DNA of 35,081 nt from contig JAUYDD010000164.1 in assembly GCA_030704765.1 (NCBI GenBank), positions 1 to 35,081 on the forward strand. Reading direction: 5' to 3'. The notes beneath the pieces are model-generated. The model ran no database searches. It worked only from the letters and a program-made list of their open reading frames with translations, and was not told the DNA's origin. Within the stretch, counting starts at the first letter, position 1, and each line of letters begins with the position of its first letter. The translations under genes and the position numbers were made by a program. This stretch comes from Nanobdellota archaeon. Lineage in GTDB: Archaea > Nanobdellota > Nanobdellia > Pacearchaeales > GW2011-AR1. Shown here in pieces: positions 4,423-34,855 of the stretch.

Positions 4423-5553
4423 ATGCCAAAAATGCCTTTATCCCATAAATTGAAGCTGTTTTCAAATTTTATATATGCAGGAAGATTTAGAGAAATCTAT
4501 AATATGATTTGGGTATATCCTTTATGGTGGAACAGAAAAACTGCAGCTTTTTTATTGAATAATTTTTTTCCTAAACTTGGAATAGACCTATTTCCACCGT
4601 TTCTTGAAATAGAACCAACTACAGTTTGCAATTTCAGGTGTGTCTGCTGTGAACATACTTATTGGAAAGAACCTTCTATAAACATGAGTTTTGAAAAATT
4701 TAAAAAAATTATTGATGATTTTAAGAGACCAAAATGGCTTGGATTAACTGGAATTGGTTCCTCATATCTGAATAAAGATTATCATAAGATGCTGAAATAT
4801 GCTAAATCTAAAGGAACAATAATAGAAGTATTTGATCATTTTGCGCATTTTAAGAATGATGATGAAATAAAAGAATTAATAGAAATAGGCCCTGATTTCC
4901 AGTTTGTTTCTATGTATGGCTCTAGTAAAATATCTTTTGAAAAAGTATGTGTTGGAAGTGATTTTGAAAAAATCATAAAAAATCTCAAGATATTTGTAAA
5001 GTTAAAAAAACAAATGAAAAAAAGATTTCCTATATTGAATTTCCATTATATTGTGACTAGTGAATCAAAGGATGAAATACTTGATTTTTTAGACTTAGTT
5101 CATTCTCTTAATACAGAAGTTGGAGAGATACTTGTGACTCCAATGCTCCATGGATATAAAGAAGCTAAAAAATACGAAGTTAGGATTGATCCTGATTATG
5201 TTAAAAAAGTAGAAGAAAGAGCAAAAAAATATAAAATAGCGGTAACAGTCAATATGTCAGCAAAACAAGAAGCAGAAGGCCTTATTTGCAAACCTCCAAT
5301 CAGGAATTGCAAAGAGTATATCATGCCTTTTATTTTTGTCACAGGTGATGTAACACCTTGTTGCGGTCAAAATGAAGCTAATGCAAGAGATTGGCAGAAA
5401 AACACTTCTCTTGGAAATGTGTTTGAAAGGCCATTTAAAGATATTTGGTATTCTCAAAAATATGTAAATATGAGAAAAATTATAAGAAAGAATAAAGTTC
5501 CAAAAGAATGTCTTTTATGTCCTGCTTATGATATATCTAAATTACATATATAG
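4423..5553 (+). CDS. Radical SAM enzyme with SPASM/twitch-like C-terminal Cys-rich domain
   Basis: 376 aa. LEIEPTTVCNFRCVCCEH contains CxxxCxxC (C-NFR-C-VC-C). C-terminal Cys cluster: CKPPIRNC ... GDVTPCCGQ ... ECLLCPAY. Confidence 0.75.
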   Translation: MPKMPLSHKLKLFSNFIYAGRFREIYNMIWVYPLWWNRKTAAFLLNNFFPKLGIDLFPPFLEIEPTTVCNFRCVCCEHTYWKEPSINMSFEKFKKIIDDFKRPKWLGLTGIGSSYLNKDYHKMLKYAKSKGTIIEVFDHFAHFKNDDEIKELIEIGPDFQFVSMYGSSKISFEKVCVGSDFEKIIKNLKIFVKLKKQMKKRFPILNFHYIVTSESKDEILDFLDLVHSLNTEVGEILVTPMLHGYKEAKKYEVRIDPDYVKKVEERAKKYKIAVTVNMSAKQEAEGLICKPPIRNCKEYIMPFIFVTGDVTPCCGQNEANARDWQKNTSLGNVFERPFKDIWYSQKYVNMRKIIRKNKVPKECLLCPAYDISKLHI

Positions 5554-5601
5554 AAGATAAGAATAAGTAAAAAATATTATTATATTGTATTTATAAACAT
5601 T

Positions 5602-5976
5602 TTATTCTTTTGGAAGTTTATCTTTTTCTTTTCTTTTCTTGCTTTTTTCAAATACTTCTTCGAATTCTCCTTTTAAGTATTTAATAAAATCTTCTTTAAC
5701 GTCTTTTGAAATTATGTTTTGATTTACTAACTTATCAAGCGCTTCTTTTTTTTCTAATATCATGTTTAATTGTTTCATGTCCTGTTCATCAGCATAATTT
5801 CTATACATTTCTGTTAAACCCCATATAGTTAAAGGTATTCCTATTAACAAAAGAAGGTTTATAGAGCTAGAATTTACATCAGCTAAAGAAGAAAAATACC
5901 ATGCTGATCCAGTACATAAGAGGCCAAGAAAAGTGATTAAAAAGTCGTATTTTATATATTTTGGAATGTCAGCCAT
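5602..5976 (-). CDS. Small membrane protein (two predicted TM helices plus charged coiled C-terminal tail), function unknown
   Basis: The ORF track starts at GTG 5982. The ATG at 5976 lies 5 nt downstream of GAGG, so I prefer 5976 as the start. Hydrophobic stretches FLITFLGLLCTGSAWYF and LLLLIGIPLTIWGL, followed by a Lys/Glu-rich tail. Confidence 0.45.
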   Translation of the reverse strand: MADIPKYIKYDFLITFLGLLCTGSAWYFSSLADVNSSSINLLLLIGIPLTIWGLTEMYRNYADEQDMKQLNMILEKKEALDKLVNQNIISKDVKEDFIKYLKGEFEEVFEKSKKRKEKDKLPKE

Positions 5977-5978
5977 AT

Positions 5979-5985
5979 TCACCTC
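5979..5985 (-). promoter_or_regulatory. Shine-Dalgarno-like GAGGTGA for the internal gene starting at 5976
   Basis: Minus strand reads AGTAGAGGTGAATATG. The element overlaps the TAG stop (5985-5987) of the upstream small ORF. Confidence 0.5.
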
Positions 5986-6179
5986 TACTTAGTTAATCCT
6001 ACTATAATTGCTATAATAATTAATATCCCTCCAAAAAAACTATAAGATACACTTCCTAATGATGTCATCAATTTAATTATATTGCTCTCGATTAAATAAT
6101 TGTTGAATAGAATTAATGCTACACCTATAACTGACAGAAGAATTACCCACAAACTACGCCTTGACCTCTTTCTACCCAT
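5985..6179 (-). CDS. Small membrane protein (64 aa, two predicted TM helices), function unknown
   Basis: ATG start. Basic N-terminus MGRKRSRRS, then LWVILLSVIGVALILF and FFGGILIIIAIIVGL. Translationally coupled to the next small ORF. Confidence 0.4.
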   Translation of the reverse strand: MGRKRSRRSLWVILLSVIGVALILFNNYLIESNIIKLMTSLGSVSYSFFGGILIIIAIIVGLTK

Positions 6180-6280
6180 AAGTAAGCTATATCTTTTTAA
6201 TTTTTAAACTTACCTATTTTAACCTTATCATAATGTTGCAATGATACTATCTAATATATGGAAATTCTTGCAAAAAATAA

Positions 6281-8152
6281 TTATTTTTTCCAAACATCTT
6301 TAAATGCTTTTATCATTTTATCAGAAAAAATACCCCAGCTTAGATTCTTCTTAATGAATAAAGAGGATTTTTTTGCATCTATAGAATATTTTTTATAATT
6401 ATCATATATCTCTATTATGGATTTTGGGTAATCTTTAGTTACAATTCCCAAATTATTCTTTTTCAATATTGATGCTGCACCAAGTTCATCTGAAACAATT
6501 ATTGGATTACCTGAACATAACATTTCAAAAGGTGCAAGCCATCCTCCTTGTTTTCCAACTGGAAAAATACCTATATTCGAAGCTTTGTATAAGTCTCTTA
6601 AATCTTCTCTATTCAAGTTACCTGTAAAATAAACATATTTCTCTAATTTTTTTTCTTTTATAAAATCTTCAAGCTTCTTCATATATGATTCATCTGCTAC
6701 TTTTCCAGCAAAGACCATTAAAATATTAGGAATCTTATCTTTTACTTTTTCTATTGCTTTCAAGGAATCTAATTGATTTTTTGATTCAGTTATCATTCCA
6801 GATTGGATTATTGTAAACTTAGATTTTAGATTGAATTTTTTTATAGCATTATTCTTATTTCCTTTTGAGAAAAAATCATGATTAATACCATAATAAACTA
6901 TCTTTGGATTTTTATTATACCTTTCAATACATCTTTGTTTATTGAGTTCATCAGCAACGCAGATTATGTCAACTGAACTCCTTATTATTTTTTTATCCAT
7001 AAAATTCCTTAGTTTATTCATGATTTTCAATCTTAAGCCTGCATCAGGCTTACTCCAGAGATTAGGTGGTTCATTCAACATCCAGACACATGGTTTTTTA
7101 TATGGAAATAAAGTCCATGTCACTGGAAAATTATGGAAATTTATGACATCGTAATCTTTTTTTAATTTTCTTATTATTTTCCTATAGAGATTTATGAATT
7201 CTATTATCTCCTTTGTATTTTTAAATCCAGGGGGTTCTAAATTGATATTATGTTTGGGAATGATAATCTCTGTGTTTATCAAAAGGTTCTCTACTTCCTT
7301 AGATTTTGATAAAGCTAGAATGTCGTTTTTTATACCTTTTTTAGTTAGTTCATTTGCTAATTCTACTACTAATAGTTCTGCTCCTCCAAAGTATTTCATC
7401 TGAGTATGTACAAGCAAGACTCTAGGATTAGATTTTTTTATTGATTCTTTAGCTAGATTATAGTCCTCCTCTGTATTAATATTTACATAGCTCTTAGTGA
7501 TAGGATAGACATATACTTTTTTTCCATCATCTACAGCTACCTGTATCCAATCAACAAGCTCTTTTTCACCCCTATTAGCGTTTATTGGAGTCCTTTCAAT
7601 ATATTCAAGCATCTCGTTTTTCAATATGCAATGTCCAGTGCCTTTTATCTTGTTTATTGGTACTTTTGGTTTTTCAATCAATCTAAAGACCCTTCCTTTT
7701 TCATTAACCATAGCTGAATAAGTCTTTCCTATGCTTAATTTATCTTCTTCAAAAGTAATTCCGCATATAGCAAATAATTCATCTTTTTTGAATCTTTTAA
7801 CCATGCCTTTTATATCCGGATCAACCAATATCTCATCTGCTAACATTAATAAAAAATCTGAATCTTTAACTGCTTCTTTTGCACACTCTACTGCATTAAC
7901 AAGGCCTTTTTGTTCTTTTTGTACAACATACTTGACTTTGATTCCTTTGTATTCTGATCCTACTTGAGAAATTATTTCTTCTTTTTTATAACCTACAACT
8001 ATAATTATTTCACTTACATTAGCTTCTACTGCATGGTCTAGATTATATTCTATTAAAGGTTTTTCAAATAATTTCAAGAGACTTTTACTCTTATCATTTA
8101 TTAATTTATTTAATCTAGAACCTCTGCCACCTGCTAATATTAAGGCCTTCAT
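6281..8152 (-). CDS. Bifunctional fusion: sugar-1-phosphate nucleotidylyltransferase (N-terminal, about nt 7427-8152) + GT4-like glycosyltransferase (C-terminal, about nt 6284-7426)
   Basis: 623 aa. N-terminus MKALILAGGRGSRL...KSLLKLFEKPLIEY is the NTP_transferase signature. From about aa 243, RVLLVHTQMKYFGGAELLVVELANEL ... VFAGK ... IGIFPVGKQGGWLAPFEMLCSGNPIIVSDELG gives a GT-B/GT4 layout. Confidence 0.7.
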   Translation of the reverse strand: MKALILAGGRGSRLNKLINDKSKSLLKLFEKPLIEYNLDHAVEANVSEIIIVVGYKKEEIISQVGSEYKGIKVKYVVQKEQKGLVNAVECAKEAVKDSDFLLMLADEILVDPDIKGMVKRFKKDELFAICGITFEEDKLSIGKTYSAMVNEKGRVFRLIEKPKVPINKIKGTGHCILKNEMLEYIERTPINANRGEKELVDWIQVAVDDGKKVYVYPITKSYVNINTEEDYNLAKESIKKSNPRVLLVHTQMKYFGGAELLVVELANELTKKGIKNDILALSKSKEVENLLINTEIIIPKHNINLEPPGFKNTKEIIEFINLYRKIIRKLKKDYDVINFHNFPVTWTLFPYKKPCVWMLNEPPNLWSKPDAGLRLKIMNKLRNFMDKKIIRSSVDIICVADELNKQRCIERYNKNPKIVYYGINHDFFSKGNKNNAIKKFNLKSKFTIIQSGMITESKNQLDSLKAIEKVKDKIPNILMVFAGKVADESYMKKLEDFIKEKKLEKYVYFTGNLNREDLRDLYKASNIGIFPVGKQGGWLAPFEMLCSGNPIIVSDELGAASILKKNNLGIVTKDYPKSIIEIYDNYKKYSIDAKKSSLFIKKNLSWGIFSDKMIKAFKDVWKK

Positions 8153-8271
8153 AGCTATTTTTTAGGGTTTATTTGCTATTTAAAGTATTTATATCAATGA
8201 AAAGTTGTTTTATAAAATATATTTTAAGATATATACCAAACACTTAAAAAACATGATATTTTAAGATTTTA

Positions 8272-9819
8272 ATGTTAAAAGAAAACTTTAAAATAACTCT
8301 TGTTTCAACTGCTACTTTTCCTTCTGACCAAGGAATCAGGACAATATCAAGTGTACTTAAAAAAGCAGGTTATGATACAAAGATAATATTCCTAGCATAT
8401 TCAGAAAATTATAAAAAAATGTATCCAGACTCAGTCTTGGAAAAAGTGAAAGAATTATGCAAAGATTCAAAATTAATTGGAATTAATTCTTTTGCATCAA
8501 CAGCACCAAGAGCAGAACAAGTGATTAAAAAATTAAAAGAGCTAAATGCACCTATAATTTGGGGAGGTATACATGCTACTATCTCTCCTGAAAAATGCAT
8601 TGGACATTGCGATATTGTCTGTGTTGGAGAAGCAGAAGATGCATTTTTAGATTTAGTCAAAGCTATTCAAAAGAAAAAAAATTTCACAAAAATAAAAAAT
8701 CTATGGATAAAAAAATATAAGAAAATAATAAAAAATCCTGTCAGACCCTTACTTGATGATTTAGATTCCCTTCCTCCTGTTGATTATGATATAGAAGACC
8801 ATTATATACTCCATAATAATGATATAATTGATTTTAGAGAAGAAGATTTAGGGGGACAGATATTCTTTTTGACAGGAAGAGGATGTCCATATGGATGCTC
8901 TTACTGCAGTAATGATTTTTTCAATAAGTTATATGAAGGAAAAAGGAAAAAAATATTAAGATGGCATAGCCCGGAATATATTGTTGATTGTGTTATAAAC
9001 TTAAAAAATAGATTCAAGACTCTAAAATATTTTGATATAAGGGATGATACTTTTTCTATGCGTTCTGCAGGAGAAATAAAAAAGTTTTGTAAACTTTACA
9101 AAGAAAAAGTGGGCATGAGATTTAAATGTCTTGGAGACCCCCATACTATTACTGAAGAGAAAATCAAAGCCCTTGTTGAAGCAGGATGCACTGATATTAT
9201 TATAGGCATACAAGGTGTTGAAAGAGTCAATAAATATATATACCATAGGAATCAAACAGACAAGGATGTATTAAGAGCTTCAAAAATCATCAACAAATAT
9301 AAAGATAAACTGACTGTTATGTATGATGTCATAACGTCTAATCCTTATGAGACTTCTGATGATATAATAAACATGATAAGGCTATTGCAAAAAATACCTA
9401 AACCTTATTATCTTTCTGTTAATAATCTTGTTTTTTTCACATCAACACCTTTATATTGCAAAGCCAAGGAAGATGGCATTATACAAAAAGAAGAGGATTC
9501 TGCAGCTGATTTGAATTATTGGGATAGGGCAGCACATATTAAATTAAAAAAGAAAAACATGTATCTTAATCTTATCCTAAATATGATGAGAGGTGTAGCT
9601 ACAAAAAAAAGATATGGAATAATGCCTAATTATCTTATTAATTATCTTTTAGAAGAAGATAGAGTAAAAAGAAATCTGGAAAATACATTTCCTACATATA
9701 TAGCATTGTTCTTTGTTGGATGGAGTGATACTATAAGGGAGAGAATAGCAAAACCTCTTTATAGAAGCATGCCAGTTTCATTTAAAGCTTGGTATGATAA
9801 AGTAAGGTATAGGGTATAG
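8272..9819 (+). CDS. B12-binding-domain radical SAM enzyme (class B)
   Basis: 515 aa. N-terminal Rossmann-type domain (ISSVLKKAGYDT, WGGIHATISPE, VCVGEAEDAFLDLV), then FFLTGRGCPYGCSYCSN (CxxxCxxC). Clear paralogue of 14618..16051. Confidence 0.8.
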   Translation: MLKENFKITLVSTATFPSDQGIRTISSVLKKAGYDTKIIFLAYSENYKKMYPDSVLEKVKELCKDSKLIGINSFASTAPRAEQVIKKLKELNAPIIWGGIHATISPEKCIGHCDIVCVGEAEDAFLDLVKAIQKKKNFTKIKNLWIKKYKKIIKNPVRPLLDDLDSLPPVDYDIEDHYILHNNDIIDFREEDLGGQIFFLTGRGCPYGCSYCSNDFFNKLYEGKRKKILRWHSPEYIVDCVINLKNRFKTLKYFDIRDDTFSMRSAGEIKKFCKLYKEKVGMRFKCLGDPHTITEEKIKALVEAGCTDIIIGIQGVERVNKYIYHRNQTDKDVLRASKIINKYKDKLTVMYDVITSNPYETSDDIINMIRLLQKIPKPYYLSVNNLVFFTSTPLYCKAKEDGIIQKEEDSAADLNYWDRAAHIKLKKKNMYLNLILNMMRGVATKKRYGIMPNYLINYLLEEDRVKRNLENTFPTYIALFFVGWSDTIRERIAKPLYRSMPVSFKAWYDKVRYRV

Positions 9820-9840: not shown

Positions 9841-9998
9841 AAACAATGGGCCACCACACCCTAAAGGTTTTTTGCCACAGCTAAAAAATCGCCTGCTGGC
9901 GAGTGTGGTTTGATAGGCCCTTGTTTTTAGGATGCTCAAGAATTGAAAACTGTAACATTTGCTACGACCACATGATAAATCATGAGGTTTTCAATTCT
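9841..9998 (+). repeat. GC-rich structured intergenic element, copy A (branched hairpin + GGATGCTC core + nested hairpin)
   Basis: AAACAATGGGCC 9841-9852 pairs with GGCCCTTGTTT 9916-9926. Inside that stem, CCACAC 9854-9859 pairs with GTGTGG 9903-9908, GGTTTTTT 9866-9873 with AAAAAATC 9883-9890, and there is a GCC-TGCT-GGC hairpin at 9891-9900. Core TTTTTAGGATGCTCAAGAATTGAA at 9924-9947. AGAATTGAAAAC 9939-9950 pairs perfectly with GTTTTCAATTCT 9987-9998, enclosing CATGA-TAAA-TCATG (apex ATAAAT). Hand count for 9841-9926 is about 48% G+C. Confidence 0.6.
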
Positions 9999-10695
9999 CG
10001 ACATAATAAATAGTCGGATCTTTAATACCTGCCCAGTAAAAACCCTCTTTCCTTAACATACAAGAAAGACAATAACCGCAAGGTTTATTTTTTATAGGAG
10101 CGTAACATGAAAATGTTTCTTTAAAATCAACACCTAATTTTTTTCCAAGCAAGATTATATCTTCTTTATCCTTGTTTATTAAAGGAGCATAGATTTTTCC
10201 ATTGATTATTGAAGCTATGGATTTTAATTTATTCATCTGTTTAATGAATTTTTTTGTTGAATCAGGATAGCTTTCTTTTCCTTCGCATTTGAATCCTACA
10301 AAAATATTATAATCTTGTTTATTCTTGATATTATAAGATTCTGCAAGAGCTATTGCATAAGCCAAAAATATAACATTTCTTTGAGGAACATAATATTTAT
10401 CAGACTCTTCTTTTGTATCTTTCAAATCCTTTCTTGATAATCTGTTCACTTTTTTTATTGAATTTATCAAAGATGTAGAAATTTTCCCTAATTCTCGCAA
10501 GTTTATTTCAATGAAATCTGCATTCAAATATTCAGAACATTTTCTTGATGCTTTTCTTTCAGACAAAACATTTCTCTGATTATAATTAAAAAATAGGATT
10601 AGTATATTATTATAATTGAGCCTATGCTTTACATAATAAGCAGTAGTTACACTATCTATACCTCCAGAACATAAAATAATTGCATTTTTTATCAT
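9991..10695 (-). CDS. queC: 7-cyano-7-deazaguanine synthase QueC (PP-loop ATPase)
   Basis: 234 aa. PP-loop ILCSGGIDS. C-terminal Zn-Cys block FSCYAPIKNKPCGYCLSCMLRKEGF...DPTIYY is characteristic of QueC/ExsB. Confidence 0.8.
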   Translation of the reverse strand: MIKNAIILCSGGIDSVTTAYYVKHRLNYNNILILFFNYNQRNVLSERKASRKCSEYLNADFIEINLRELGKISTSLINSIKKVNRLSRKDLKDTKEESDKYYVPQRNVIFLAYAIALAESYNIKNKQDYNIFVGFKCEGKESYPDSTKKFIKQMNKLKSIASIINGKIYAPLINKDKEDIILLGKKLGVDFKETFSCYAPIKNKPCGYCLSCMLRKEGFYWAGIKDPTIYYVEN

Positions 10696-10988: not shown

Positions 10989-11894
10989 ATGATTGACATT
11001 ATAATAACTTCTTTTAATGAACCAAAAGCAACACTTAGAGCTGTAGAGATATTTTTAAACCAGGATATAAAAGAGAAATTTAGGATAATAGTATGCGATC
11101 CTTTTCCTGAAGTAAAAGAATTATTTAAAAAAAATATAAAAGATAAAAGAGTTGGATTTTTCCTAGATCCTGGAGAAGGAAAAAGCTATGCTTTAAATCT
11201 TCTAATCGAAAAATTAAACACAAACAGTCAAGAGGATATATTTATATTTACAGATGGAGATGTCCATGTCTCTAATAATGCTTTAAAAGAAATAACTGAA
11301 GCTTTTAAAGATCCTAAAGTCGGATGTGCCACTGCAAAACCTGTTACAATAAATCCAAGAAACAATATGATGGGTTATTGGTCTCATCTGCTTTTTTCAG
11401 GAATTCATAAAGTTAGAAAAAATCTTTCTAATAAAGAAAGATTCTTTGAATGTTCTGGATATTTATTTGCTATAAGAAAAGGGGTCATATTTGAATTTCC
11501 ATTAGATGGTTCTGAAGATGGAATTATTCCTTATATTTTTTGGAAAAATGGATATAAAATAAAATATCTTCCTAGTTTAGAGGTTTATGTAAAAAATCCT
11601 GAGAACCTAAAAGATTGGAAAACCCAAAAAATAAGAAATATTAAAGGACATGAAAACTATTCCAAACTTTATCCAGATATGCCTAGGACAAAAAGCTTTT
11701 TGAATGAAATCAGATACGGACTATTTCATGCACTTTTTTATCCTAGAACTCCTAAAGAAGCATGGTGGACAATAAAGTTATTTTATCATAGATATTCCAT
11801 CTATAGTCAAGCATTCAAAGACTTGAAGAAAAAAGAAGTCTATACAGATGGTTGGAGAGAAAATGAAACTCCTACAACAAGGACCTTGGATTAA
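10989..11894 (+). CDS. Glycosyltransferase family 2-like
   Basis: 301 aa. IDIIITSFNEPKATLRAV (GT-A N-terminal strand), GKSYALNLLI, and the DxD-like FTDGDVHV. Confidence 0.7.
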   Translation: MIDIIITSFNEPKATLRAVEIFLNQDIKEKFRIIVCDPFPEVKELFKKNIKDKRVGFFLDPGEGKSYALNLLIEKLNTNSQEDIFIFTDGDVHVSNNALKEITEAFKDPKVGCATAKPVTINPRNNMMGYWSHLLFSGIHKVRKNLSNKERFFECSGYLFAIRKGVIFEFPLDGSEDGIIPYIFWKNGYKIKYLPSLEVYVKNPENLKDWKTQKIRNIKGHENYSKLYPDMPRTKSFLNEIRYGLFHALFYPRTPKEAWWTIKLFYHRYSIYSQAFKDLKKKEVYTDGWRENETPTTRTLD

Positions 11895-12773: not shown

Positions 12774-13193
12774 TTAAATTTTTCTTTTTAACTTGAATCT
12801 TTTCAATTTCTGCTCTAATTTTTCTAAGGAATCTACAAATTCCATAGAACTTATCAATATTGAACTTAAATAATCAAATGCTTCTTCTATTGATTCATCA
12901 GTCTTGATACCTATTGCAGGTATATTTTTTGCATAAGCATATCCTAATTCCCAAGAAGTACCTGCCCCTATATGAAGACCGTTTAAATCTGCTATTATTA
13001 AATCAATATCTCTAAAACCTTTTATTATATCTTCATTAAAGATTCTTTTTGCATCTTTAATATCTTTTGCTATGCCTACATCCCTATGAGGTAAAAAGGT
13101 CTTAAAACCTAGTTTTTCGCATAAATTTGCAATTTTTTCTAGAAATTCTTTTTCAGAATCATCTGATAGTTTTCCAGCAATATATACTTTCAT
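12774..13193 (-). CDS. Nucleoside 2-deoxyribosyltransferase-like protein
   Basis: 139 aa. MKVYIAGKL ... DLIIADLNG...GAGTSWELGYAYAKNIPAIGI matches the Nuc_deoxyrib_tr family pattern, including the conserved Glu within GT-x-x-E-hG-h-A. Confidence 0.6.
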   Translation of the reverse strand: MKVYIAGKLSDDSEKEFLEKIANLCEKLGFKTFLPHRDVGIAKDIKDAKRIFNEDIIKGFRDIDLIIADLNGLHIGAGTSWELGYAYAKNIPAIGIKTDESIEEAFDYLSSILISSMEFVDSLEKLEQKLKRFKLKRKI

Positions 13194-16051: not shown

Positions 16052-16138
16052 AAATAAAAAATAAAAAGATTGTTTAAAAATATATAGGTAAAATCATTCA
16101 ATAAAAACATATAAAAACCATTCATTGATTATAAATTA

Positions 16139-27289: not shown

Positions 27290-28843
27290 TCATATTTGAT
27301 GTAAAAACTTATTCTTTATAGAGGATATTATCATCAAATCATTATTATCCAGACTTCTTGATATAAATATCAAGAGTAGATAAATTAACATGAAAAATGA
27401 AGCAAGCATAATTAAAGAAAAAAGGTTTATTTCTATAAATCGTCTTAAATAAAATATGAACAATGCTGGAAATATTGAACAAAGGGCTATTCCTATCATT
27501 TTTTTTCTTAATGGTATTATTGAAGTATATTTTTTAACTTGAAAGAACAATAAGAAAAATAAAATTATTTGAGAAAATAATGTGGTAAAAGCAGCTCCTG
27601 ACATGCCGTATATGGGTACGATTATTATATTTAATGTCAAGTTAATAACGGCTGTAATAACTGTATTAAATAAAATAGTTTTAGATTTTCCTGCCATGGA
27701 CAAGAGATTATAAAATATTACAGATAGTGAATAAATGAAAAAGCTTATCGAGAGTATTCTTAATGGAATTTCAGCTGAGATATATTCAGATCCGAAAAGT
27801 AGATTAATAAAAGCTCCTGGAAACAAGAACATTAATGCAAAAACAGGAAGATTGATAATAAACACCCATTTTTCAACTTGTTTACTTAATTCTTTGACTA
27901 AAGAAAGGTTCTTCTTTGCATATTCCTTTGTTACTATCGGCAGGAAAAGACGCATAAAAATTGTTGGAAAAAATCCTAAAAGCATTGCAATAGATACTGC
28001 AGAAGTATAAAGCCCTACTTCCAAAGTCCCTTTGAAGTATCCTATTGTCAAAGAATCAATATAAAAAAATATTGCGTCTAAAAGACCTAAAAAAACTAAA
28101 GGCCAAGAATAAGAAAAAAGATCTTTTTTTATTTTTGATTTGGATTGCTTATCTAAATCATAAGAAGAATGTTTAATGAGATATTTCTTACAATAATAAT
28201 AAGATAATAAATAAATCAATAATAATCCTAATATATAAGAAATAATAATTGAATTAGAATTAAAACCTAGATATATGAACAATAGTAGCATAAAAATCTT
28301 TATAATACTAGGGGTAATATCAAAAATAAAAGTATATTCTTTTATTTTTTCAAATCCCTGTATCACTGCTAATAAAATGTTTGATAATGCGAAAAATGGC
28401 ACTCCTATACTGAATATCCTCAAAAATATCACTAGATTAGTATCATGAAAAATATTTACTGAAATATATTCTGAGAAAATAAATAATATTATTCCAGATA
28501 ACAAAGAGAGAAAAAAGATGAATGATAAAGAAATATGGTAAAGATACTTTAATCTATCTTTATCATCTCTAGACCTAAAAATAGAGATATATCTGAGTAC
28601 ACCTTCATGAAAACCTAGAGAAGCAAATACTCCGAACCATCCTAGAATTATCAATGCTAAAGAAAAACGGCCATAAACTTCTGGACCAAAATTTCTAGCA
28701 ATAATTATACGATAAACATATGCAAACAGTTTGGATATCAATATTCCTATAAAGACTATAATCGAGGTCTTTACTATGTTTTTTAATGAATTTTCTACTA
28801 GATGTTTTTTCTTATATCTCATGATATTAAATGAAAATGCCAT
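27290..28843 (-). CDS. Oligo/polysaccharide flippase (MOP superfamily, Wzx-like)
   Basis: 517 aa with 12-14 hydrophobic segments. N-terminal SKLFAYVYRIIIARNFGPEVYGRFSLAL is typical of Polysacc_synt proteins. Met8 (nt 28822) may be the true start, because a TTTTTAAATAT element at 28848-28858 would then sit about 30 nt upstream. Confidence 0.7.
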   Translation of the reverse strand: MAFSFNIMRYKKKHLVENSLKNIVKTSIIVFIGILISKLFAYVYRIIIARNFGPEVYGRFSLALIILGWFGVFASLGFHEGVLRYISIFRSRDDKDRLKYLYHISLSFIFFLSLLSGIILFIFSEYISVNIFHDTNLVIFLRIFSIGVPFFALSNILLAVIQGFEKIKEYTFIFDITPSIIKIFMLLLFIYLGFNSNSIIISYILGLLLIYLLSYYYCKKYLIKHSSYDLDKQSKSKIKKDLFSYSWPLVFLGLLDAIFFYIDSLTIGYFKGTLEVGLYTSAVSIAMLLGFFPTIFMRLFLPIVTKEYAKKNLSLVKELSKQVEKWVFIINLPVFALMFLFPGAFINLLFGSEYISAEIPLRILSISFFIYSLSVIFYNLLSMAGKSKTILFNTVITAVINLTLNIIIVPIYGMSGAAFTTLFSQIILFFLLFFQVKKYTSIIPLRKKMIGIALCSIFPALFIFYLRRFIEINLFSLIMLASFFMLIYLLLIFISRSLDNNDLMIISSIKNKFLHQI

Positions 28844-29071: not shown

Positions 29072-29623
29072 ATGAAATTTTTAAGAAAAATTGCTAGGGA
29101 GCTATTATTAAAAAAAAGGAGCCCTGCAAGATACGATCTAGAAAGAAAAATCTTTCCAAAAATTAAACAAAAAAAGATTTTGCTTGTCGGTATTGCAGAC
29201 TATATAAAGAATTATCCTGATAAATTAAAAGAAAATGAGATATGGACCTTGGATATAGACCCGAACGTAGCTAAATATGGCTCAAAAAACCACATAATTG
29301 GAGATGTGTCTGTTGTAGATAAATATTTTAGTAAAAATTTTTTGGATTATATTTTTTTATGTGGAGTTATTGGCTGCGGTTTAAACGATATAATAAAAAC
29401 AGAAAAAGCCATAAATAATTCTTATAAAATATTAAAACCTAAAGGGATTTTAGTTGTAGGGTGGGATTCTGGGAATACAAAAAAATGGGGATTTAGATTG
29501 CCGCTTATGGATAATTTAAAAATAAATAAAAAATTTAATAGAACATCAAGATTTGGATTTCCAATAGGATATAAATACGGCACAGAAGAAAAATATTATA
29601 GTTATGATTTTCTTGAAAAATGA
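29072..29623 (+). CDS. Methyltransferase-like Rossmann protein (degenerate motif I)
   Basis: 183 aa. KILLVGIADY replaces the usual hhDhGxGxG. WTLDIDPN, DYIFLCGVIGCGLND and ILKPKGILVVGW keep class I MTase spacing. ATGA overlap with the downstream GT-C gene. Confidence 0.4.
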   Translation: MKFLRKIARELLLKKRSPARYDLERKIFPKIKQKKILLVGIADYIKNYPDKLKENEIWTLDIDPNVAKYGSKNHIIGDVSVVDKYFSKNFLDYIFLCGVIGCGLNDIIKTEKAINNSYKILKPKGILVVGWDSGNTKKWGFRLPLMDNLKINKKFNRTSRFGFPIGYKYGTEEKYYSYDFLEK

Positions 29624-31281
29624 AATATAAAATACTGCTTTCGCTGATATTGGTCTTGCATCTTATATTTGTAGTTATATCCATGAACCAACCTTTTCAT
29701 GGAGATGAGATAATCTGGACTGAAGCTGCGAATAGCATCATGAAGACAGGAAAACCTGTTTTTGACTATGGAAGAAATAATCCTATGCACATGGCTCTTT
29801 TACATGTTCCGACAAACATGTATATCCTGAGTGTTTTTATTTACTTTTTAGGTTATAATGAAATCTCTGCGAGATTAGTCTGCACTATTTTCAATATATT
29901 AACAATTTTCTTGATTTATTTTATATCTTTGGAAATATTTAAAAACAATAAAAATAAAAGAAGTTATTCTATACTTGCAGTATTTCTTTATGCTCTTAAT
30001 CCTTTCACTATACAGAGTATGATGCTAGTGGATGTTGATCCTGGATTATTAAATTTTTCATTGGCTCTTTTTTTATATTTATATATTAAAGAAAAAAAGT
30101 ATTATTTTCTAATACCTTCCTTAATCTTGGTTTTTTTATCAAAAGAAGTCGGCCTTGTCCTATTATTTCCGGTTTTAATCCTATCCAATATTATCCCCCC
30201 TAATAAGAAAAAAATCCTTGAAACTTTTGTTTTATTTATTATTTCAATATTGATATTCCTTTTAATATGTTTAATATTTTCAAAAATTACGGGTCTAGAC
30301 ATATTTATGCCACTTAAAACAAATTTTCTAGGGCAAAAAGCTAATTTTTTTGATAAAGGAGAAATACTTATACATATCTGGAATTTTAAGAATTTTTTTT
30401 ACTATGCAACTCCTTATTTAATTTCCTTGTTTTTTATCTTTTCTATTGTATTTTATTATAAAGTTATAAAAAATATTAATATAATTAAACGAAAAGATGT
30501 TCATGAGATTTTTTTAATCAATTTATTTGTATTTGCTATAATAGGATTATATATGATAAAGGGAGGAAGTGCCTGGGGATTTCCAAAATATTATATCCTA
30601 GCTATGCCTTGGATTTCGATTTTTATAGCTTTTATGTTATCAAAAAGCAATATTATTGAATATATGAAAAAGAAGCTTTATACTCATAGATTCCTTTTTA
30701 TCTTATTGATAATATTTATGTTCATCTATTTCTATTCGTATATTGGGGATCCCTTGATGCCTGAAATTGATACTTCTGTAAATAATACTGGAGTTTTTTT
30801 AGCAATAACACTTATATTAAAAAGCTTTATTCTTTATGCAATAATTCCATTCGCTGTAATATATCTCTTTTTTTATTTTTCCAGATTTAATGGCAAGATG
30901 TACATGGCATTATTGTTACTGATATTTTTTTCATATGCTTATATAGATATATTGCATACAACAGTAGATTATTCTACTTATAGCAAATACGGTGATAGGG
31001 GCATTCCAGAGGTTATAAATTATGTTAAAGAAAAAGATTTGCCAATTGAGAAAATAGCAACCCATATGCATATAGGACATTATTTAGGATTATCAAGATA
31101 TTATGAAATAACATTTAGTTATGATTATCCGGATAGATTTAAAAAAGAGATAATTGATAATCCAGAAATTGAATATTTAATAATATGGAACAGGGATGTT
31201 ATAAGAATAGGTGATAATATGAAATATTTTAAATTAGAAAAACAAATAGGAAGTTATTATATATACAGAAAAATTATATAG
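29620..31281 (+). CDS. GT-C fold membrane glycosyltransferase (ArnT/PMT, GT39/83-like)
   Basis: 553 aa with more than 10 TM segments. First-loop acidic motif QPFHGDEIIWTEAANS and a soluble C-terminal domain. No WWDYG motif. Confidence 0.6.
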   Translation: MKYKILLSLILVLHLIFVVISMNQPFHGDEIIWTEAANSIMKTGKPVFDYGRNNPMHMALLHVPTNMYILSVFIYFLGYNEISARLVCTIFNILTIFLIYFISLEIFKNNKNKRSYSILAVFLYALNPFTIQSMMLVDVDPGLLNFSLALFLYLYIKEKKYYFLIPSLILVFLSKEVGLVLLFPVLILSNIIPPNKKKILETFVLFIISILIFLLICLIFSKITGLDIFMPLKTNFLGQKANFFDKGEILIHIWNFKNFFYYATPYLISLFFIFSIVFYYKVIKNINIIKRKDVHEIFLINLFVFAIIGLYMIKGGSAWGFPKYYILAMPWISIFIAFMLSKSNIIEYMKKKLYTHRFLFILLIIFMFIYFYSYIGDPLMPEIDTSVNNTGVFLAITLILKSFILYAIIPFAVIYLFFYFSRFNGKMYMALLLLIFFSYAYIDILHTTVDYSTYSKYGDRGIPEVINYVKEKDLPIEKIATHMHIGHYLGLSRYYEITFSYDYPDRFKKEIIDNPEIEYLIIWNRDVIRIGDNMKYFKLEKQIGSYYIYRKII

Positions 31282-31301
31282 TATCTTATAGGGAATAAAA
31301 T

Positions 31302-31901
31302 TTATGACCAGTCTTTTATATAGTCCATGGAAGTCATTACAGCGTCTACATCTATTCTTTCTTCATCTAAAAATTTTCTATATATCTTTATATCTTGGGG
31401 CCTTCCCCATCTTTCAGGACAGACTAAGCATAGTTTAAATCCTTCTTTTTTCAATCGGTCATATACTTCTCTTGTTAATGGAAGCTGTGTGTTTACATCT
31501 ATCCAAACCCAATCTAATAAACCTTTTTGTGCAAGAGCCATCTCAATAGGCTCTGCTTCACTAAATCTTACTGCTATTTTTTTAAATCCATCCCTTCTTG
31601 TTGCATAATAAAGAAAAGGGAATTCAACATCCAAAAGAAAATAATCTTCTATATCATATTTTTTCGCTAAACCTATCACTTGTTTTTCTATACCTGCCTC
31701 CTTTATATTGAATATTATAAAAGCATGTTTGTATTCCTTTAGATAATCCTCTAATTCATCATGATCATCTGGATTTTTTATAGAATCATGATTTAATAAT
31801 AGTCTGTCACCATATGCCCTTATATCTATTTCAACACCATATTCTTGAGGTGTTTTTTTTAGATCCTCGATTTTATTAACCCTATGCCTTATTATTAACA
31901 T
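31302..31901 (-). CDS. GDPD/PI-PLC-like TIM-barrel phosphodiesterase (short form)
   Basis: The ORF track starts at TTG 31910, and the first ATG is at 31901 (MLIIRHR...). IIRHR, GVEIDIRAYGDRLLLNHD reproduce the H-R ... E-x-D ... H-D catalytic pattern of glycerophosphodiester phosphodiesterases. GGAG lies at 31914-31917 on the minus strand. Confidence 0.5.
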   Translation of the reverse strand: MLIIRHRVNKIEDLKKTPQEYGVEIDIRAYGDRLLLNHDSIKNPDDHDELEDYLKEYKHAFIIFNIKEAGIEKQVIGLAKKYDIEDYFLLDVEFPFLYYATRRDGFKKIAVRFSEAEPIEMALAQKGLLDWVWIDVNTQLPLTREVYDRLKKEGFKLCLVCPERWGRPQDIKIYRKFLDEERIDVDAVMTSMDYIKDWS

Positions 31902-31946
31902 ACTATTCAATATCTCCTAGTAATTATAAAGGTTATCATTTATAGT

Positions 31947-32109: not shown

Positions 32110-32117
32110 CCTATAAA

Positions 32118-32915
32118 TCAAGCTTTTTTTATTAAAACTATTCTTCTTTGAAGAGCAAAAAATCTTGGAGAAAGGAAAACCAAGACAGAATCTAAAGTGC
32201 CTATAAGTCTTAATAATGTCAAAGGCAGCTCAATGGTTTTTGCTTTTGCAATTACTCCTCCTGAAAGTGGAAATATAAAAAACTCTGAAAAAGATTTTTC
32301 AACTATATCAAAGTAAGGCACTTCTTTATTAAATTTTTCCAAATCATCGAATAAGAGATTGGGTATTGCACAATTAGCAGACCAAAGATCATCTTTATCT
32401 GTGCAAGGAATCTTTAAGCTGTAGACATCTGCATTATAAGACCATCCTTCATGTTTCATTATCCTCAATATCAATCTCATAGCAATAGAGCAATTAACTT
32501 CTTGTATTAATAAATATCCTCCTGGTTTTAGGATCCTGTTCATTTCAGTAAAAAATTTTTTTGGATATGGAGTATGATGAATCATATTACTGCAGAAAAC
32601 GACATCATAATTATTTTTTTTTAATCGGGTCTTAAGAGCATCAACTTTTTTTTCTACCCAGGGATGATCTGCAAAATCTGTAAGCAAGAGACTGCAATCC
32701 TCTCTGATAAAATCTTTTGAAACTCCTGTTCCACAACCGACTTCAAGAACCTTATCTTTCTCTTTGATATATTTGTTCATCCAAGAAAACCTTTTGTTCA
32801 AAAGATATACTAAATTTCTTGGTTTATACTTATAATAATTCTCCCTTGCTAAGACTACATCTCCTTCATGCTTCATTAAATTTTTATTATGGCGAGACTT
32901 GTATTCTCTTAACAT
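32118..32915 (-). CDS. Class I SAM-dependent methyltransferase
   Basis: 265 aa. KVLEVGCGTGV (motif I), LLLTDFAD, DVVFCSNMIHHTPYPKKFFTEMNRILKPGGYLLIQE. Confidence 0.75.
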   Translation of the reverse strand: MLREYKSRHNKNLMKHEGDVVLARENYYKYKPRNLVYLLNKRFSWMNKYIKEKDKVLEVGCGTGVSKDFIREDCSLLLTDFADHPWVEKKVDALKTRLKKNNYDVVFCSNMIHHTPYPKKFFTEMNRILKPGGYLLIQEVNCSIAMRLILRIMKHEGWSYNADVYSLKIPCTDKDDLWSANCAIPNLLFDDLEKFNKEVPYFDIVEKSFSEFFIFPLSGGVIAKAKTIELPLTLLRLIGTLDSVLVFLSPRFFALQRRIVLIKKA

Positions 32916-32916
32916 T

Positions 32917-33216
32917 TTATTTTTTTATGTCTGAATCTTGGATATATTCGAAATCATATATTAAAGCTATATGTGCTTTTTGAAGCTCTTTACCTAGATA
33001 TGCTGCATGATCAAGCAAAGATATATGGCCTTCATCAATAATCTTATACATAATCTCTTCAGGAGTCTTTCCTATTATAATCCTTATAATTTCATTATTT
33101 TTTAAACAATGGGCTACTTCTATTATTTTCTTTTCTCTATTTATTCTTATTAAGAAATAGCCTTTTGGATCAAGATTCCATTTTTGTTTGAATCCGTTTG
33201 CATCTATCTCTTCCAT
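32917..33216 (-). CDS. DUF4346-like small protein
   Basis: 99 aa. WNLDPKGYFLIRIN...IEVAHC ... GHISLLDHAAYLGKELQKAHIAL...YIQD matches my recollection of the DUF4346 pattern (LDP-GYF ... HAAYLGrEL-kAe ... Y-QD). One nt separates it from the downstream methyltransferase gene. Confidence 0.45.
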   Translation of the reverse strand: MEEIDANGFKQKWNLDPKGYFLIRINREKKIIEVAHCLKNNEIIRIIIGKTPEEIMYKIIDEGHISLLDHAAYLGKELQKAHIALIYDFEYIQDSDIKK

Positions 33217-33241
33217 GTTTATATAAATTATTCGTAATAAT

Positions 33242-33252
33242 CTTTATAAAAG
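33242..33252. promoter_or_regulatory. Near-palindromic TATA-like element CTTTATAAAAG midway between divergent ATGs 33216 (-) and 33272 (+)
   Basis: 55-nt spacer. The element is centred about 25-31 nt from each start codon. Confidence 0.35.
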
Positions 33253-33271
33253 CTTTTAGGTATTCTAGAAG

Positions 33272-34855
33272 ATGGTAGACATAATCTTATTTCAACCTAA
33301 ATGCGGGATATGGGATATAATGGGTATAAGGGTGCCTATAGGATTATTGAGTATAGCTGCAGATCCAGTAAAAAAGGGGTATGAAACAGCCCTTATAGAC
33401 CAAAGAACTAGTATAAATTGGAAAGAAGAATTAAAAAAACAAATAAACTCAGGAGCAAAACTAGTATGCTTGACTACTATGGTTGGAGAACAGATAAAAT
33501 ACATGTTAGAGGTCTCTAAATTTATCAAATCAATAAATCCTAGAATTATCACAGTTCTTGGAGGAAGCTGGGCTCAGACAGAACCTGAAATGTGCATGCA
33601 GGATAAGAATCTTGATATTGTATGTTATGGAGAAGGAGACTACATATTATCAGAATTAATGGAATATATAAACAAAAAAAGAAAGATAGAGAATATATTA
33701 GGTATTATCTATAGAGATAAAGAAGGAAATTTAAGAAAAAACAAAGAAAGGGCTTTAATAAAAGATCTAGATGACTTACCTAAGATTCCGTATAATCTTA
33801 TTGATCTTAAAGATTATACTGCAGTGGGATTTAGAGCTGGAAAGCAATCTATATCCCTAGTATTAAGTAGAGGTTGTCCATATAGATGCACTTTTTGTTC
33901 GATTGTAAAATTTTATAATAGATCTTGGAGAGGTTATTCCTTAAAAAGGGTTATGGAAGATATAAATGAATTAGATATAAAATATAATATCAAGGATTTT
34001 TATTTCAATGATGATAATATTGCAGGCAATCCAAAAAGATTTTCAGAATTTGTAAAAATGCTTGTTGACAAAAACCGAGACTATAATTGGGGTATAGCTG
34101 GAATCAGAGCTGATACTATTTTAAGTCTTGATGAAGAAACCTTGCAAAACCTTGTAAAAAGCGGGTGTAAAAATTTAGATATAGGAGCTGAATCTGGAAG
34201 CCAAAGAATCCTAGATATGGTTCATAAGGATGAAAGTTTAGAAAAAATTAGAGAAGCAAATAAAAGACTTTCTAAATATCCTTTGATTGTAAAATACACT
34301 TTTATGGGAGGCTTTCCAACAGAGACTGAAAAAGAATTCTTAGAAACATTAAGATTCAAAAGAATTCTTGAAAAAGAAAACCCTCATGCAATAGGTCTTG
34401 TTTTTTTCTATACTCCTTTTCCAAGAACAGAAATGTTCTCCACAGCTGTGGGTCATGGATTAAATCCTCCTAAAAACCTTATTGAATGGGCTGATTTTAA
34501 TTATGACACTTGGACAAAAAAACAAGCATCCTGGCTTACAAAAAGAAAAATTAAATTAATTGAAAATTCTGTTTTTATATCTTATTTTGCTAATAATAAT
34601 CTTAGCTATAAATATCCAAATCCTTTGATGAATTTCATGTTCAAAACATATTATCCTCTTGCGAAATTCAGGTATGACAATAATTTCTATTCATTAATGA
34701 TTGAAAAAAAAGCAGCAGATGTTATTACAAAATTGAATGAAAAATATGATTTATTCAACAGGATAAAGAAAAAATCAAAAAAATTTTCTGAAATCAAAAA
34801 AATCTTTCATAAGATTTTTTGGAACATTCAAAATCTTTTAGAGATTTTGAAGTAA
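33272..34855 (+). CDS. B12-binding-domain radical SAM enzyme (class B)
   Basis: 527 aa. LLSIAADPVKKGYETALID, LGGSWAQTEPE, VCYGEGDYILSELM, then LVLSRGCPYRCTFCS (CxxxCxxC). Confidence 0.8.
   Translation: MVDIILFQPKCGIWDIMGIRVPIGLLSIAADPVKKGYETALIDQRTSINWKEELKKQINSGAKLVCLTTMVGEQIKYMLEVSKFIKSINPRIITVLGGSWAQTEPEMCMQDKNLDIVCYGEGDYILSELMEYINKKRKIENILGIIYRDKEGNLRKNKERALIKDLDDLPKIPYNLIDLKDYTAVGFRAGKQSISLVLSRGCPYRCTFCSIVKFYNRSWRGYSLKRVMEDINELDIKYNIKDFYFNDDNIAGNPKRFSEFVKMLVDKNRDYNWGIAGIRADTILSLDEETLQNLVKSGCKNLDIGAESGSQRILDMVHKDESLEKIREANKRLSKYPLIVKYTFMGGFPTETEKEFLETLRFKRILEKENPHAIGLVFFYTPFPRTEMFSTAVGHGLNPPKNLIEWADFNYDTWTKKQASWLTKRKIKLIENSVFISYFANNNLSYKYPNPLMNFMFKTYYPLAKFRYDNNFYSLMIEKKAADVITKLNEKYDLFNRIKKKSKKFSEIKKIFHKIFWNIQNLLEILK

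Follow-up and report, generated by a model that had tools for sequence, protein, structure and literature searches.

Gene content of the locus

We examined a 35,081-nucleotide stretch of DNA (hereafter the window) from a Nanobdellota archaeon, contig JAUYDD010000164.1, in which genes for radical S-adenosylmethionine (SAM) enzymes lie among genes for glycosyltransferases (GTs). Nearly the whole window is a cell-surface glycan assembly locus of Pacearchaeota, and the organism is a DPANN archaeon. The core of the locus is a nine-gene operon encoding a class B, HpnJ-like radical-SAM enzyme, which we call rSAM_A. The window has a G+C content of 24-30% and carries 30 substantial open reading frames (ORFs). 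A portion of its contig is also present in run SRR13727536. A search for tRNAs and Rfam RNAs found none in the window.

The ORFs were scanned with Pfam against gathering scores, and all 30 were scanned with NCBIfam against the curated equivalog cut-offs. Five radical-SAM genes passed the Pfam thresholds. One is of the SPASM type (4423-5553, plus strand), with PF04055 at 40.9 bits and PF13186 at 45.1 bits. The other four combine a B12-binding domain (PF02310, gathering score 32.1 bits) with a Radical_SAM domain: 8272-9819 (plus; 57 bits for B12-binding and 60 for Radical_SAM), 14618-16051 (minus; 67 and 100 bits), rSAM_A at 21910-23367 (minus; 34.8 bits for B12-binding) and 33272-34855 (plus; 54 and 70 bits), the Radical_SAM scores of the four spanning 60-100 bits. 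This agrees with an earlier note on this DNA, which had proposed one SPASM and four class B enzymes. The peptide motifs quoted there (WGGIHAT, FGGPHPT, MGDHVTS, LGGSWAQ, SSVLKK, EAFLD and DLDSLP) are all present in the translations. Of the gene starts that it gave, 4423, 8272 and 33272 stand, and 14618 and 21910 proved to be the 3' ends of minus-strand genes.

We count exactly ten GT-type genes, where more than ten had been claimed: two of family GT4, an NTP-transferase/GT4 fusion, three of family GT2, a GT9/NUDIX fusion, two of the PMT_2 family and one phosphotransferase of the Glycos_transf_4 family. Pfam confirmed three class I methyltransferases, at 1365, 17803 and 32118, out of the four or five that had been suggested. 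The further candidate, at 29072-29623 (plus), gave sub-threshold matches only (Ubie_methyltran, E 0.032; Methyltransf_11, E 0.046; NodS, E 3e-4).

The core operon and its conservation

Nine minus-strand genes, running from 27093 down to 17803, overlap or nearly abut, which points to one operon. It opens with a polyprenyl-phosphate N-acetylhexosamine-1-phosphate transferase of the AglH/WecA/MraY superfamily (26077-27093; Pfam Glycos_transf_4, PF00953, 108 bits), followed by a flippase-like membrane protein of the LPG_synthase_TM family (25157-26080; PF03706, 150 bits). The latter gave the single NCBIfam pass among the window ORFs, to the generic flippase-like domain TIGR00374 (111 bits), and scored below the cut-off of the HpnL model (46 bits). 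Two GT2 genes come next. GT2a (24369-25151; Glycos_transf_2, 82 bits) is of the polyprenyl-phosphate-sugar-synthase type, with weak matches to AglJ, ArnC and PpgS, and GT2b (23372-24328; Glyco_tranf_2_3/Glycos_transf_2) has C-terminal membrane helices. rSAM_A follows GT2b. Its mechanically called ORF, 21910-23397, begins 10 codons early: homologues start at 'MK(I/L)LIGYPP', so the start most likely lies at 23367, giving a protein of 485 amino acids. With this start the overlap with GT2b, whose stop codon occupies 23372-23374, is gone.

The 3' part of the operon encodes a predicted Pol-beta-fold nucleotidyltransferase of 428 amino acids (20646-21932), an alkaline-phosphatase-superfamily phosphodiesterase/phosphotransferase (19558-20646; Phosphodiest, 49.5 bits), a DUF362 protein (18332-19561; 134 bits) with a Cys-rich C-terminus (CPIK...CLMCMYC) and, last, a class I SAM methyltransferase (17803-18330; Methyltransf_23). 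Convergent with the operon is a GT-C glycosyltransferase (16139-17830, plus; PMT_2/ArnT-like), of a type that uses polyprenyl-phosphate sugars; its best matches in 22 related loci have 26-53% identity, mostly 44-53%.

We assessed synteny in 83 rSAM_A loci, many of them incomplete, counting best matches to window genes. GT2b has a homologue in 57 of the 83, usually immediately upstream of rSAM_A and on the same strand, in archaea as well as bacteria. GT2a was matched in 48 loci, the phosphotransferase in 33, the flippase-like protein in 31 and the nucleotidyltransferase-like gene in 23. Sixteen related loci have an orthologue of the phosphodiesterase, in each case behind the nucleotidyltransferase-like gene, and orthologues of the terminal methyltransferase (52-72% identity) occupy the same position in 15. 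No gene of the cluster is more highly conserved than rSAM_A itself, which shows 73-76% identity compared with 31-72% for its neighbours. The DUF362 gene is present in only two related loci (L014 and L046); its product might be an Fe-S electron-transfer partner of the radical-SAM enzymes.

The 428-residue protein of the window matches no Pfam family. Its 17 homologues share a signature in which G46, G53, N66, D67, D69 and D119 are invariant and G47 and G51 occur in at least 90%; weak Polbeta and NTP_transf_2 matches appear in seven and five of the 17, respectively. Sequence searches of the PDB returned no match for this protein or for the phosphodiesterase. We infer that the nucleotidyltransferase-like and alkaline-phosphatase-family pair may add a phospho-substituent.

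In Pacearchaeota and Woesearchaeota the recurrent gene order is STT3, phosphotransferase, (flippase-like), GT2a, (GT2b), rSAM_A, (flippase-like), nucleotidyltransferase-like, phosphodiesterase, one to three additional class B or SPASM radical-SAM genes and methyltransferase, with PMT_2 convergent. In 30 loci of these two groups an STT3/AglB homologue precedes the orthologous cluster, and in related loci with called genes it comes directly before the phosphotransferase. Upstream of the phosphotransferase the window has, instead of STT3, a Wzx/MurJ-type lipid-linked oligosaccharide flippase (27290-28843, minus; Polysacc_synt, 85 bits, with Polysacc_synt_3, MatE and MurJ). In bacteria, Pfam scans of two contexts gave the orders Wzx, GT2, GT2, rSAM_A, aminotransferase, GT2 and GT2, rSAM_A, SPASM radical-SAM, GT4. 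Inside the orthologous cluster of L003, a single 620-residue protein (15238-17100, plus) fuses GT2, Radical_SAM and SPASM domains, so that a glycosyltransferase is physically linked to a radical-SAM enzyme. An ORF of similar size (619 amino acids), its domains unscanned, occupies the same position in L020.

Orthologues of all four class B genes lie in glycosyltransferase-rich loci elsewhere. Together with the position of the core operon next to STT3/AglB in 30 relatives, this supports the proposal of a lipid-linked glycan pathway, and no conserved synteny with non-glycan genes was found in the loci examined. A predicted glycan-tailoring role of the radical-SAM genes is well supported by this conserved synteny across two domains of life. 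It is very improbable that these genes have housekeeping roles, in tRNA, cofactor or lipid-core modification, and lie among glycosyltransferase genes by chance. A QueC-like gene does lie in the same region (9991-10695), and weak MiaB/RimO, Elp3 and RaSEA matches occur low in the NCBIfam lists, but every radical-SAM family examined is syntenic with glycosyltransferases, flippases and sugar-nucleotide genes in both domains, and the GT2/radical-SAM/SPASM fusion stands in a relative's cluster.

The number of class B genes had been thought to be without characterised precedent. This is consistent with the literature, and the number itself is not exceptional among relatives: in related Pacearchaeota and Woesearchaeota loci of at most 21.5 kb, class B genes average 2.1 and reach 4, so the window's four in 35 kb are normal for the lineage.

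Distribution, conservation and fold of rSAM_A

With one genome scanned per species, rSAM_A proved to be encoded in at least 589 species genomes from both domains. The best 120 protein clusters matching it have 71-80% identity. Among the matches listed, identity is 72-78% in Pacearchaeota, 53-66% in Woesearchaeota, Aenigmarchaeota and Micrarchaeota, and 50-64% in Bathyarchaeia and many bacterial phyla. The bacterial carriers comprise Kiritimatiellae, Lentisphaerae, Verrucomicrobia, Desulfosudaceae, Dehalococcoidia, Actinomycetota, Latescibacterota, Omnitrophota, Goldiibacteriota, Saccharibacteria and Nitrospinae. Homologues of rSAM_A, and of the enzymes at 8272 and 33272, are named as Pacearchaeota, Nanoarchaeota or Woesearchaeota.

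The radical-SAM Cys triad of rSAM_A is CX4CX2C (C-WWGK-C-LF-C), as against the canonical CX3CX2C of the other four radical-SAM enzymes of the window. The triad ascribed to all four class B enzymes is thus present in each, with the canonical spacing in three. C214, C219 and C222 of rSAM_A are 99-100% conserved among 83 homologues, in which 85 of the 485 positions reach at least 97% conservation. Also highly conserved are C272, the 'GDH' at 112-114 and an N-terminal 'QNRQF' core, of which R23 to Q26 are invariant within Pacearchaeota as well. Distant representatives at 34-37% identity retain CX4CX2C, and one at 44% has the canonical motif.

In two orthologues, P0361 and P0362 (54-55% identity), an intein is inserted exactly at the third Cys of CX4CX2C, with junctions that read '...KCTF|C FHPET...AN|CVWD'. 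The first is a mini-intein and the second carries a LAGLIDADG endonuclease. Three further homologues, P0363, P0366 and P0367 (47-52% identity, 890-972 amino acids), have a large insert at the same position.

An AlphaFold2 model was made of rSAM_A only (predicted local distance difference test score 68.6; predicted template modelling score 0.69). It matches TsrM, MgmA, AprD4, CysS, OxsB and TokK with template modelling scores of about 0.6 and E values from 5e-16 to 6e-12, and as a predicted fold it confirms the class-I B12 radical-SAM architecture. The earlier note had looked to such models for cobalamin-binding pockets. The fold is recovered, and AprD4, which contains no cobalamin, matches the model equally well as the true cobalamin enzymes, so that the model cannot separate cobalamin binders from AprD4-like proteins and permits no conclusion on a pocket. 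Cobalamin binding has no universal sequence motif, and the lower-axial residue varies among the solved enzymes (PMC12931638).

These matches bear on the idea that some or all of the 'B12-binding' domains bind no cobalamin, with 'class B' serving as a label of fold only and the enzymes acting as AprD4-type sugar dehydratases, epimerases or dehydrogenases. AprD4 is a diol dehydratase with a remotely Rossmann-like domain; it binds no cobalamin, and similarity networks place it among B12 radical-SAM enzymes (PMC12931638). It is one of the top structural matches of rSAM_A and the best PDB sequence match of the enzyme at 14618 (E 9e-17, with TokK and CysS also matched). An SDR (short-chain dehydrogenase/reductase) 'epimerase' gene follows a class B gene in L003, L004, L012 and L020, which can be read as a dehydratase/reductase-like pair, and a small-genome DPANN archaeon would need to scavenge cobalamin. 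We nevertheless regard the idea as distinctly unlikely. All four enzymes pass the Pfam B12-binding gathering score, the cobalamin enzymes TsrM, MgmA, OxsB and TokK match equally well, and the scores with the AprD4 model (NF033070, cut-off 500 bits) are low: 78.5 bits for 14618, 57 for 33272, 37 for rSAM_A and 28 for 8272.

Relation of the class B enzymes to HpnJ and to methylases

Profile searches thus placed the B12-binding and Radical_SAM domains as the earlier note had expected, and no radical-SAM gene reached a curated NCBIfam subfamily. With the HpnJ model (TIGR03471, cut-off 577.6 bits), rSAM_A scored 177 bits, 33272 scored 146, 14618 scored 139 and 8272 scored 76, all below the cut-off. 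HpnJ is the best NCBIfam match of rSAM_A, over nearly its full length, and of 14618. The best matches of the other two are BchE for 33272 (162 bits against a cut-off of 481) and the MJ_1487 family for 8272 (82 bits against 251). In pairwise comparison rSAM_A shares 31% identity with HpnJ over 388 amino acids (134 bits, E 1e-38), compared with at most 105 bits for its paralogues in the window. Annotated hpnJ genes on plasmids match it at 30-31% identity by tblastn. In a neighbour-joining (NJ) tree of 26 sequences, with Poisson distances for the bootstrap, the rSAM_A superfamily received 100% support and joined HpnJ, a Lawsonia radical-SAM protein and the protein P0410 at 72%, the reference families being sparsely sampled.

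The conversion attributed to HpnJ, a ring contraction of bacteriohopanetetrol glucosamine to bacteriohopanetetrol cyclitol ether, rests on genetics, and its substrate is a lipid-linked glucosamine installed by a GT2 enzyme (PMC13459092). This raises the prospect of a core module that remodels membrane-lipid head groups, as do HpnI/J/K/L or calditol enzymes: the GT2 would glycosylate a host-derived lipid, the sugar ring would be contracted by rSAM_A into a cyclitol ether that resists acid, and flipping of the product would fall to the LPG_synthase_TM protein. HpnJ is the closest named relative of rSAM_A, the domain composition (class B radical-SAM, GT2 and LPG_synthase_TM) is that of the hpnJ-hpnI-hpnL-hpnK cluster, and calditol synthase provides an archaeal precedent for a radical-SAM ring contraction on a glycolipid (PMC13459092). 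The order in Burkholderia is hpnJ, hpnI, a gene for an LPG-synthase-domain protein, hpnK, hpnI.

Orthology of GT2b to HpnI (BLASTP E 0.25) and of the flippase-like protein to HpnL (BLASTP E 1.3; 45.8 bits with the hidden Markov model against a cut-off of 195.65) was rejected, as no similarity was detectable. No HpnK-like deacetylase or hopanoid gene was found in the window. Moreover, the cluster opens with a polyprenyl-phosphate phosphotransferase, is accompanied by STT3 in 30 relatives, and has bacterial homologues in Wzx-type polysaccharide loci. We therefore consider head-group remodelling quite improbable. The core module is an analogue with a related radical-SAM enzyme and not a member of the Hpn system.

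The earlier note had suggested that the locus appears built to make a lipid-linked glycan that is heavily C- and O-methylated or otherwise radical-tailored. In the specific, methylation form of that reading, all four class B enzymes would act as cobalamin-dependent C-methyltransferases alongside the class I methyltransferases. Methylases do make up most of the characterised class B enzymes (PMC12931638, PMC13459092). In PDB sequence searches, both rSAM_A (E 1.7e-13) and 33272 (E 3.6e-15, with OxsB, AprD4 and TokK also matched) match best to MgmA/QCMT (9CCB), which C-methylates a glutamine of methyl-coenzyme M reductase in a B12-dependent reaction (PMC11796369). The methylase TokK is matched by 14618 and, as its sole and weak PDB match, by 8272; 14618 also matches CysS. 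The locus also has its three confirmed class I methyltransferases, and P0327 (711 amino acids, 32% identity to 33272) fuses a class I methyltransferase domain to B12-binding and radical-SAM domains.

Against this, the window's class B proteins score 21-129 bits with those that they match among the models for PhpK, HpnR, KedN5, RiPP C-methyltransferase and MgmA (cut-offs 282-700), and no methylase cut-off is reached (35-129 bits against 280-750). The top models and the nearest named sequence of rSAM_A are HpnJ and BchE rather than methylases, the best PDB match of 14618 is the dehydratase AprD4, and no sequence signature tells methylases from other class B enzymes. A locus dedicated to heavy C-methylation is not supported by these assignments, and we consider it unlikely, if still credible, that all four enzymes are C-methylases; methylation is possible as one option among several.

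The other radical-SAM enzymes

The enzymes at 8272 and 14618 are paralogues, as had been proposed: they are mutual best matches in the window (34% identity over 347 amino acids), and their groups cluster together at 88% NJ bootstrap. The 8272 family, from Pacearchaeota and Nanoarchaeota, numbers over 120 clusters with identities of 65-79%. In both L085 and L086 a GT4 gene stands immediately upstream of the family member, which in L085 is also beside PMT_2, GtrA, phosphotransferase and STT3 genes. An orthologue of 14618 (61% identity) occupies the same position in L004, beside methyltransferase and PMT_2 genes.

The enzyme at 33272 belongs to an accessory family with a restricted range, made up of about 40 clusters that share 53-69% identity with it. 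Its orthologues have PMT_2 directly upstream in L088 and GtrA and nucleotidyltransferase genes alongside in L087. For the SPASM enzyme at 4423, the best NCBIfam match is a tungsten-cofactor maturase (106 bits against a cut-off of 380), and a PDB sequence search gave no match; an orthologue (64% identity) is found in L015 near the 8272 orthologue. These four would be extra, partly variable sugar-tailoring enzymes beside the glycosyltransferase genes.

Further genes of the window

The left part of the window begins with a GT4-family glycosyltransferase (210-1289, plus; Glycos_transf_1, 79 bits) that has a weak match to TIGR04157, 'glyco_rSAM_CFB'. A class I SAM methyltransferase (1365-2012, minus; Methyltransf_23/11/31) and a second GT4 enzyme (1999-3177, minus; Glycos_transf_1, 118 bits, and Glyco_transf_4) follow, then a NAD-dependent sugar epimerase/4,6-dehydratase of the SDR family (3209-4246, minus; Epimerase, 140 bits; dTDP-glucose 4,6-dehydratase in NCBIfam, 139 bits, below the cut-off). 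A 623-residue fusion of a sugar-1-phosphate nucleotidylyltransferase (AglF/RmlA-like) with GT4 is encoded at 6281-8152 (minus; NTP_transferase with Glycos_transf_1/Glyco_transf_4; AglF-like, 152 bits, below the cut-off), divergently from the radical-SAM gene at 8272. Its orthologues in L015 and L010 (61-73% identity) adjoin class B radical-SAM genes. The third GT2 enzyme (10989-11894, plus; Glyco_tranf_2_3/Glycos_transf_2) has orthologues at 36-45% identity beside PMT_2 in eight related loci.

A fusion of a GT9 (heptosyltransferase-type) domain with a NUDIX hydrolase (13241-14608, plus; Glyco_transf_9 and NUDIX) has orthologues at 43-61% identity in L019, L022 and L047. A small Nuc_deoxyrib_tr-family protein (12774-13193, minus) is encoded divergently from it, and the pair recurs in L022 and L047 at 39-64% identity. 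In the relatives L002 and L086, the latter carrying an 8272 orthologue in the same locus, there are SIS, GHMP-kinase, HAD and nucleotidyltransferase-epimerase genes that resemble a heptose-nucleotide pathway, and in L086 we read them, from sequence, as such a pathway. The GT9/NUDIX pair and these genes of relatives together suggest that the glycan contains heptose.

At the right end, downstream of the candidate methyltransferase at 29072, lie a second GT-C glycosyltransferase (29620-31281, plus; PMT_2, 34.5 bits) and a class I SAM methyltransferase (32118-32915, minus; Methyltransf_23/11/31). Between them is an ORF of 202 amino acids (31302-31910, minus); a by-eye assignment of this ORF as a glycerophosphodiester phosphodiesterase was rejected, since neither Pfam nor NCBIfam backed it even with the threshold relaxed to an E value of 5. 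Another ORF, of 126 amino acids (5602-5982, minus), matched no Pfam or NCBIfam family at relaxed thresholds and has membrane helices predicted by eye. The QueC-like gene at 9991-10695 (minus), which encodes a PP-loop protein amid the glycan genes, reached 133.7 bits, short of the 150.3 bits set for the QueC equivalog. None of the 83 related loci yielded a homologue of it, and it may be an archaeosine-pathway gene.

A proposed surface-glycan pathway

Taken as a whole, these data are best explained by a surface-glycan pathway made up of the core operon and the radical-SAM genes, in which rSAM_A remodels a lipid-linked sugar, and we consider this explanation likely. A sugar chain linked to dolichyl or polyprenyl phosphate would be started and extended on the cytoplasmic face of the membrane. 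rSAM_A, by means of a 5'-deoxyadenosyl radical derived from SAM at its [4Fe-4S] cluster, would then remodel the sugar just added by GT2b. Its cobalamin-type domain could serve as methyl donor or as electron sink, and the chemistry would be a C-H functionalisation, for example C-methylation or an HpnJ-like ring contraction. Further substituents would be attached by the nucleotidyltransferase, the phosphotransferase and the methyltransferase. The product would be flipped by the flippase-like protein, by Wzx or by both, decorated outside by the PMT_2 enzymes and finally transferred by AglB/STT3, which is encoded next to the operon in relatives and outside the window here.

Several observations weigh against this explanation. 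No STT3 was found in the window (best tblastn match, E 3.5), and in place of an N-glycan the acceptor might be a lipid or some other polymer. No radical-SAM, glycosyltransferase or methyltransferase gene among the 30 ORFs reached an NCBIfam equivalog cut-off, and neither GT2b nor the flippase-like protein is orthologous to its Hpn counterpart. Confidence in the rSAM_A model is moderate and poorest at the Cys motif and the conserved N-terminal insert, and AprD4 fits the model as well as the cobalamin enzymes do. DPANN genomes are small, which raises the question of cobalamin supply.

A more specific reading takes rSAM_A together with the GT2 partner as a two-enzyme cassette, so far undescribed and conserved across both domains, which would make a radical-generated sugar modification on lipid-linked surface-glycan precursors and, in Pacearchaeota and Woesearchaeota, would operate within AglB N-glycosylation. 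The product would be a ring-contracted carbasugar or cyclitol, or a C-branched sugar, to give examples. We advance this reading tentatively, as one that may well be right although we stop a little short of favouring it.

Class B radical-SAM proteins are among the largest enzyme groups of unknown function, and to our knowledge the sugar-acting members come from antibiotic pathways or act on hopanoid head groups. The locus points to a tightly conserved, glycosyltransferase-linked family in hundreds of archaeal and bacterial species, one that sits within the N-glycosylation locus of DPANN archaea. These archaea live attached to hosts, so the cell surface is central to their biology. By its gene content and conservation, the locus probably makes a widespread sugar modification. 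A carbocyclic or C-branched surface sugar, if confirmed, would be a new building block in prokaryotic glycobiology and would assign a role to a large family of enzymes that lacks annotation. If the cassette exists as we describe it, it would be the first case of a class B radical-SAM enzyme acting in the glycosylation of proteins or cell surfaces, and it would hint at a sugar that is common, though so far unseen, among anaerobic microbes, most of them uncultured. A further question posed by the locus is where DPANN cells, with their reduced genomes, get the cobalamin for several enzymes of this kind. Its interest lies mainly in the breadth and conservation of the rSAM_A/GT2 cassette.

Comparison with known systems

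The Hpn system resembles the window in placing a class B radical-SAM gene beside genes for a GT2 and an LPG_synthase_TM membrane protein, and HpnJ has in common with rSAM_A a 'CxFCxWP' stretch and, ahead of the first helix, an N-terminal insert. The two differ in the Cys motif, CX3CX2C in HpnJ and CX4CX2C in rSAM_A, and in context, which is hopanoid synthesis for the one and a polyprenyl-phosphate/STT3 glycan pathway in an archaeon for the other.

GenK, GenD1 and AprD4, like the window's class B enzymes, join an N-terminal Rossmann domain to a radical-SAM barrel that acts on carbohydrate C-H bonds. GenK and GenD1 are C-methylases and AprD4 is a diol dehydratase, all tailoring soluble aminoglycosides in actinomycete secondary metabolism. 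The window genes, in contrast, belong to loci for primary surface glycans that are conserved in archaea and in many bacterial phyla. MgmA/QCMT, the second-ranked structural match of rSAM_A, shares its compact class-I B12 radical-SAM architecture of about 450 amino acids (PMC12931638). Unlike rSAM_A, MgmA has a canonical CX3CX2C motif, and its substrate is a protein; with its NCBIfam model, MJ_0865, the window proteins score 35-94 bits against a cut-off of 360.

With the Agl systems and with GtrB/ArnC plus flippase plus GT-C systems, the window shares a phosphotransferase, DPM/AglJ-like GT2 enzymes, Wzx or flippase-like proteins and PMT_2 enzymes. The Agl-type parts present are the priming phosphotransferase, the three GT2 enzymes and the Wzx-type and TIGR00374 flippases, and no window gene reached the AglJ, AglG or AglF equivalog cut-off. 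Modification of lipid-linked sugars before flipping is known, for example from ArnD and DprE1/E2. In the literature, including reviews of 2026 (PMC12931638, PMC13459092), we found no characterised Agl or Gtr/Arn pathway with a class B radical-SAM enzyme. Literature searches on radical SAM with glycosylation in Pacearchaeota or DPANN, and on cobalamin-dependent radical SAM with polyprenyl, likewise returned no characterised counterpart.

The best plasmid match of rSAM_A lies on a 27-kb plasmid of Lawsonia intracellularis, a cultured pig pathogen (L090, NC_008012.1, 8112-25428; 29.6% identity over 91% of the query). The cluster there combines the same types of gene as the window: it encodes GT2 enzymes, GalE, an SIS protein, a HAD hydrolase, a GHMP kinase, a class B-like and a second radical-SAM enzyme and five class I methyltransferases. 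In contrast to the archaeal enzyme, the Lawsonia protein is bacterial and plasmid-borne and falls outside the tight rSAM_A family, grouping with HpnJ at 93% bootstrap. Bacterial homologues, among them relatives carried on plasmids by the cultured Lawsonia and Solidesulfovibrio, are practical starting points for work on the system. Set beside these known systems, what we classify as new is that a predicted sugar-tailoring enzyme of the class B radical-SAM type is placed in a surface/N-glycan pathway that is itself conserved.

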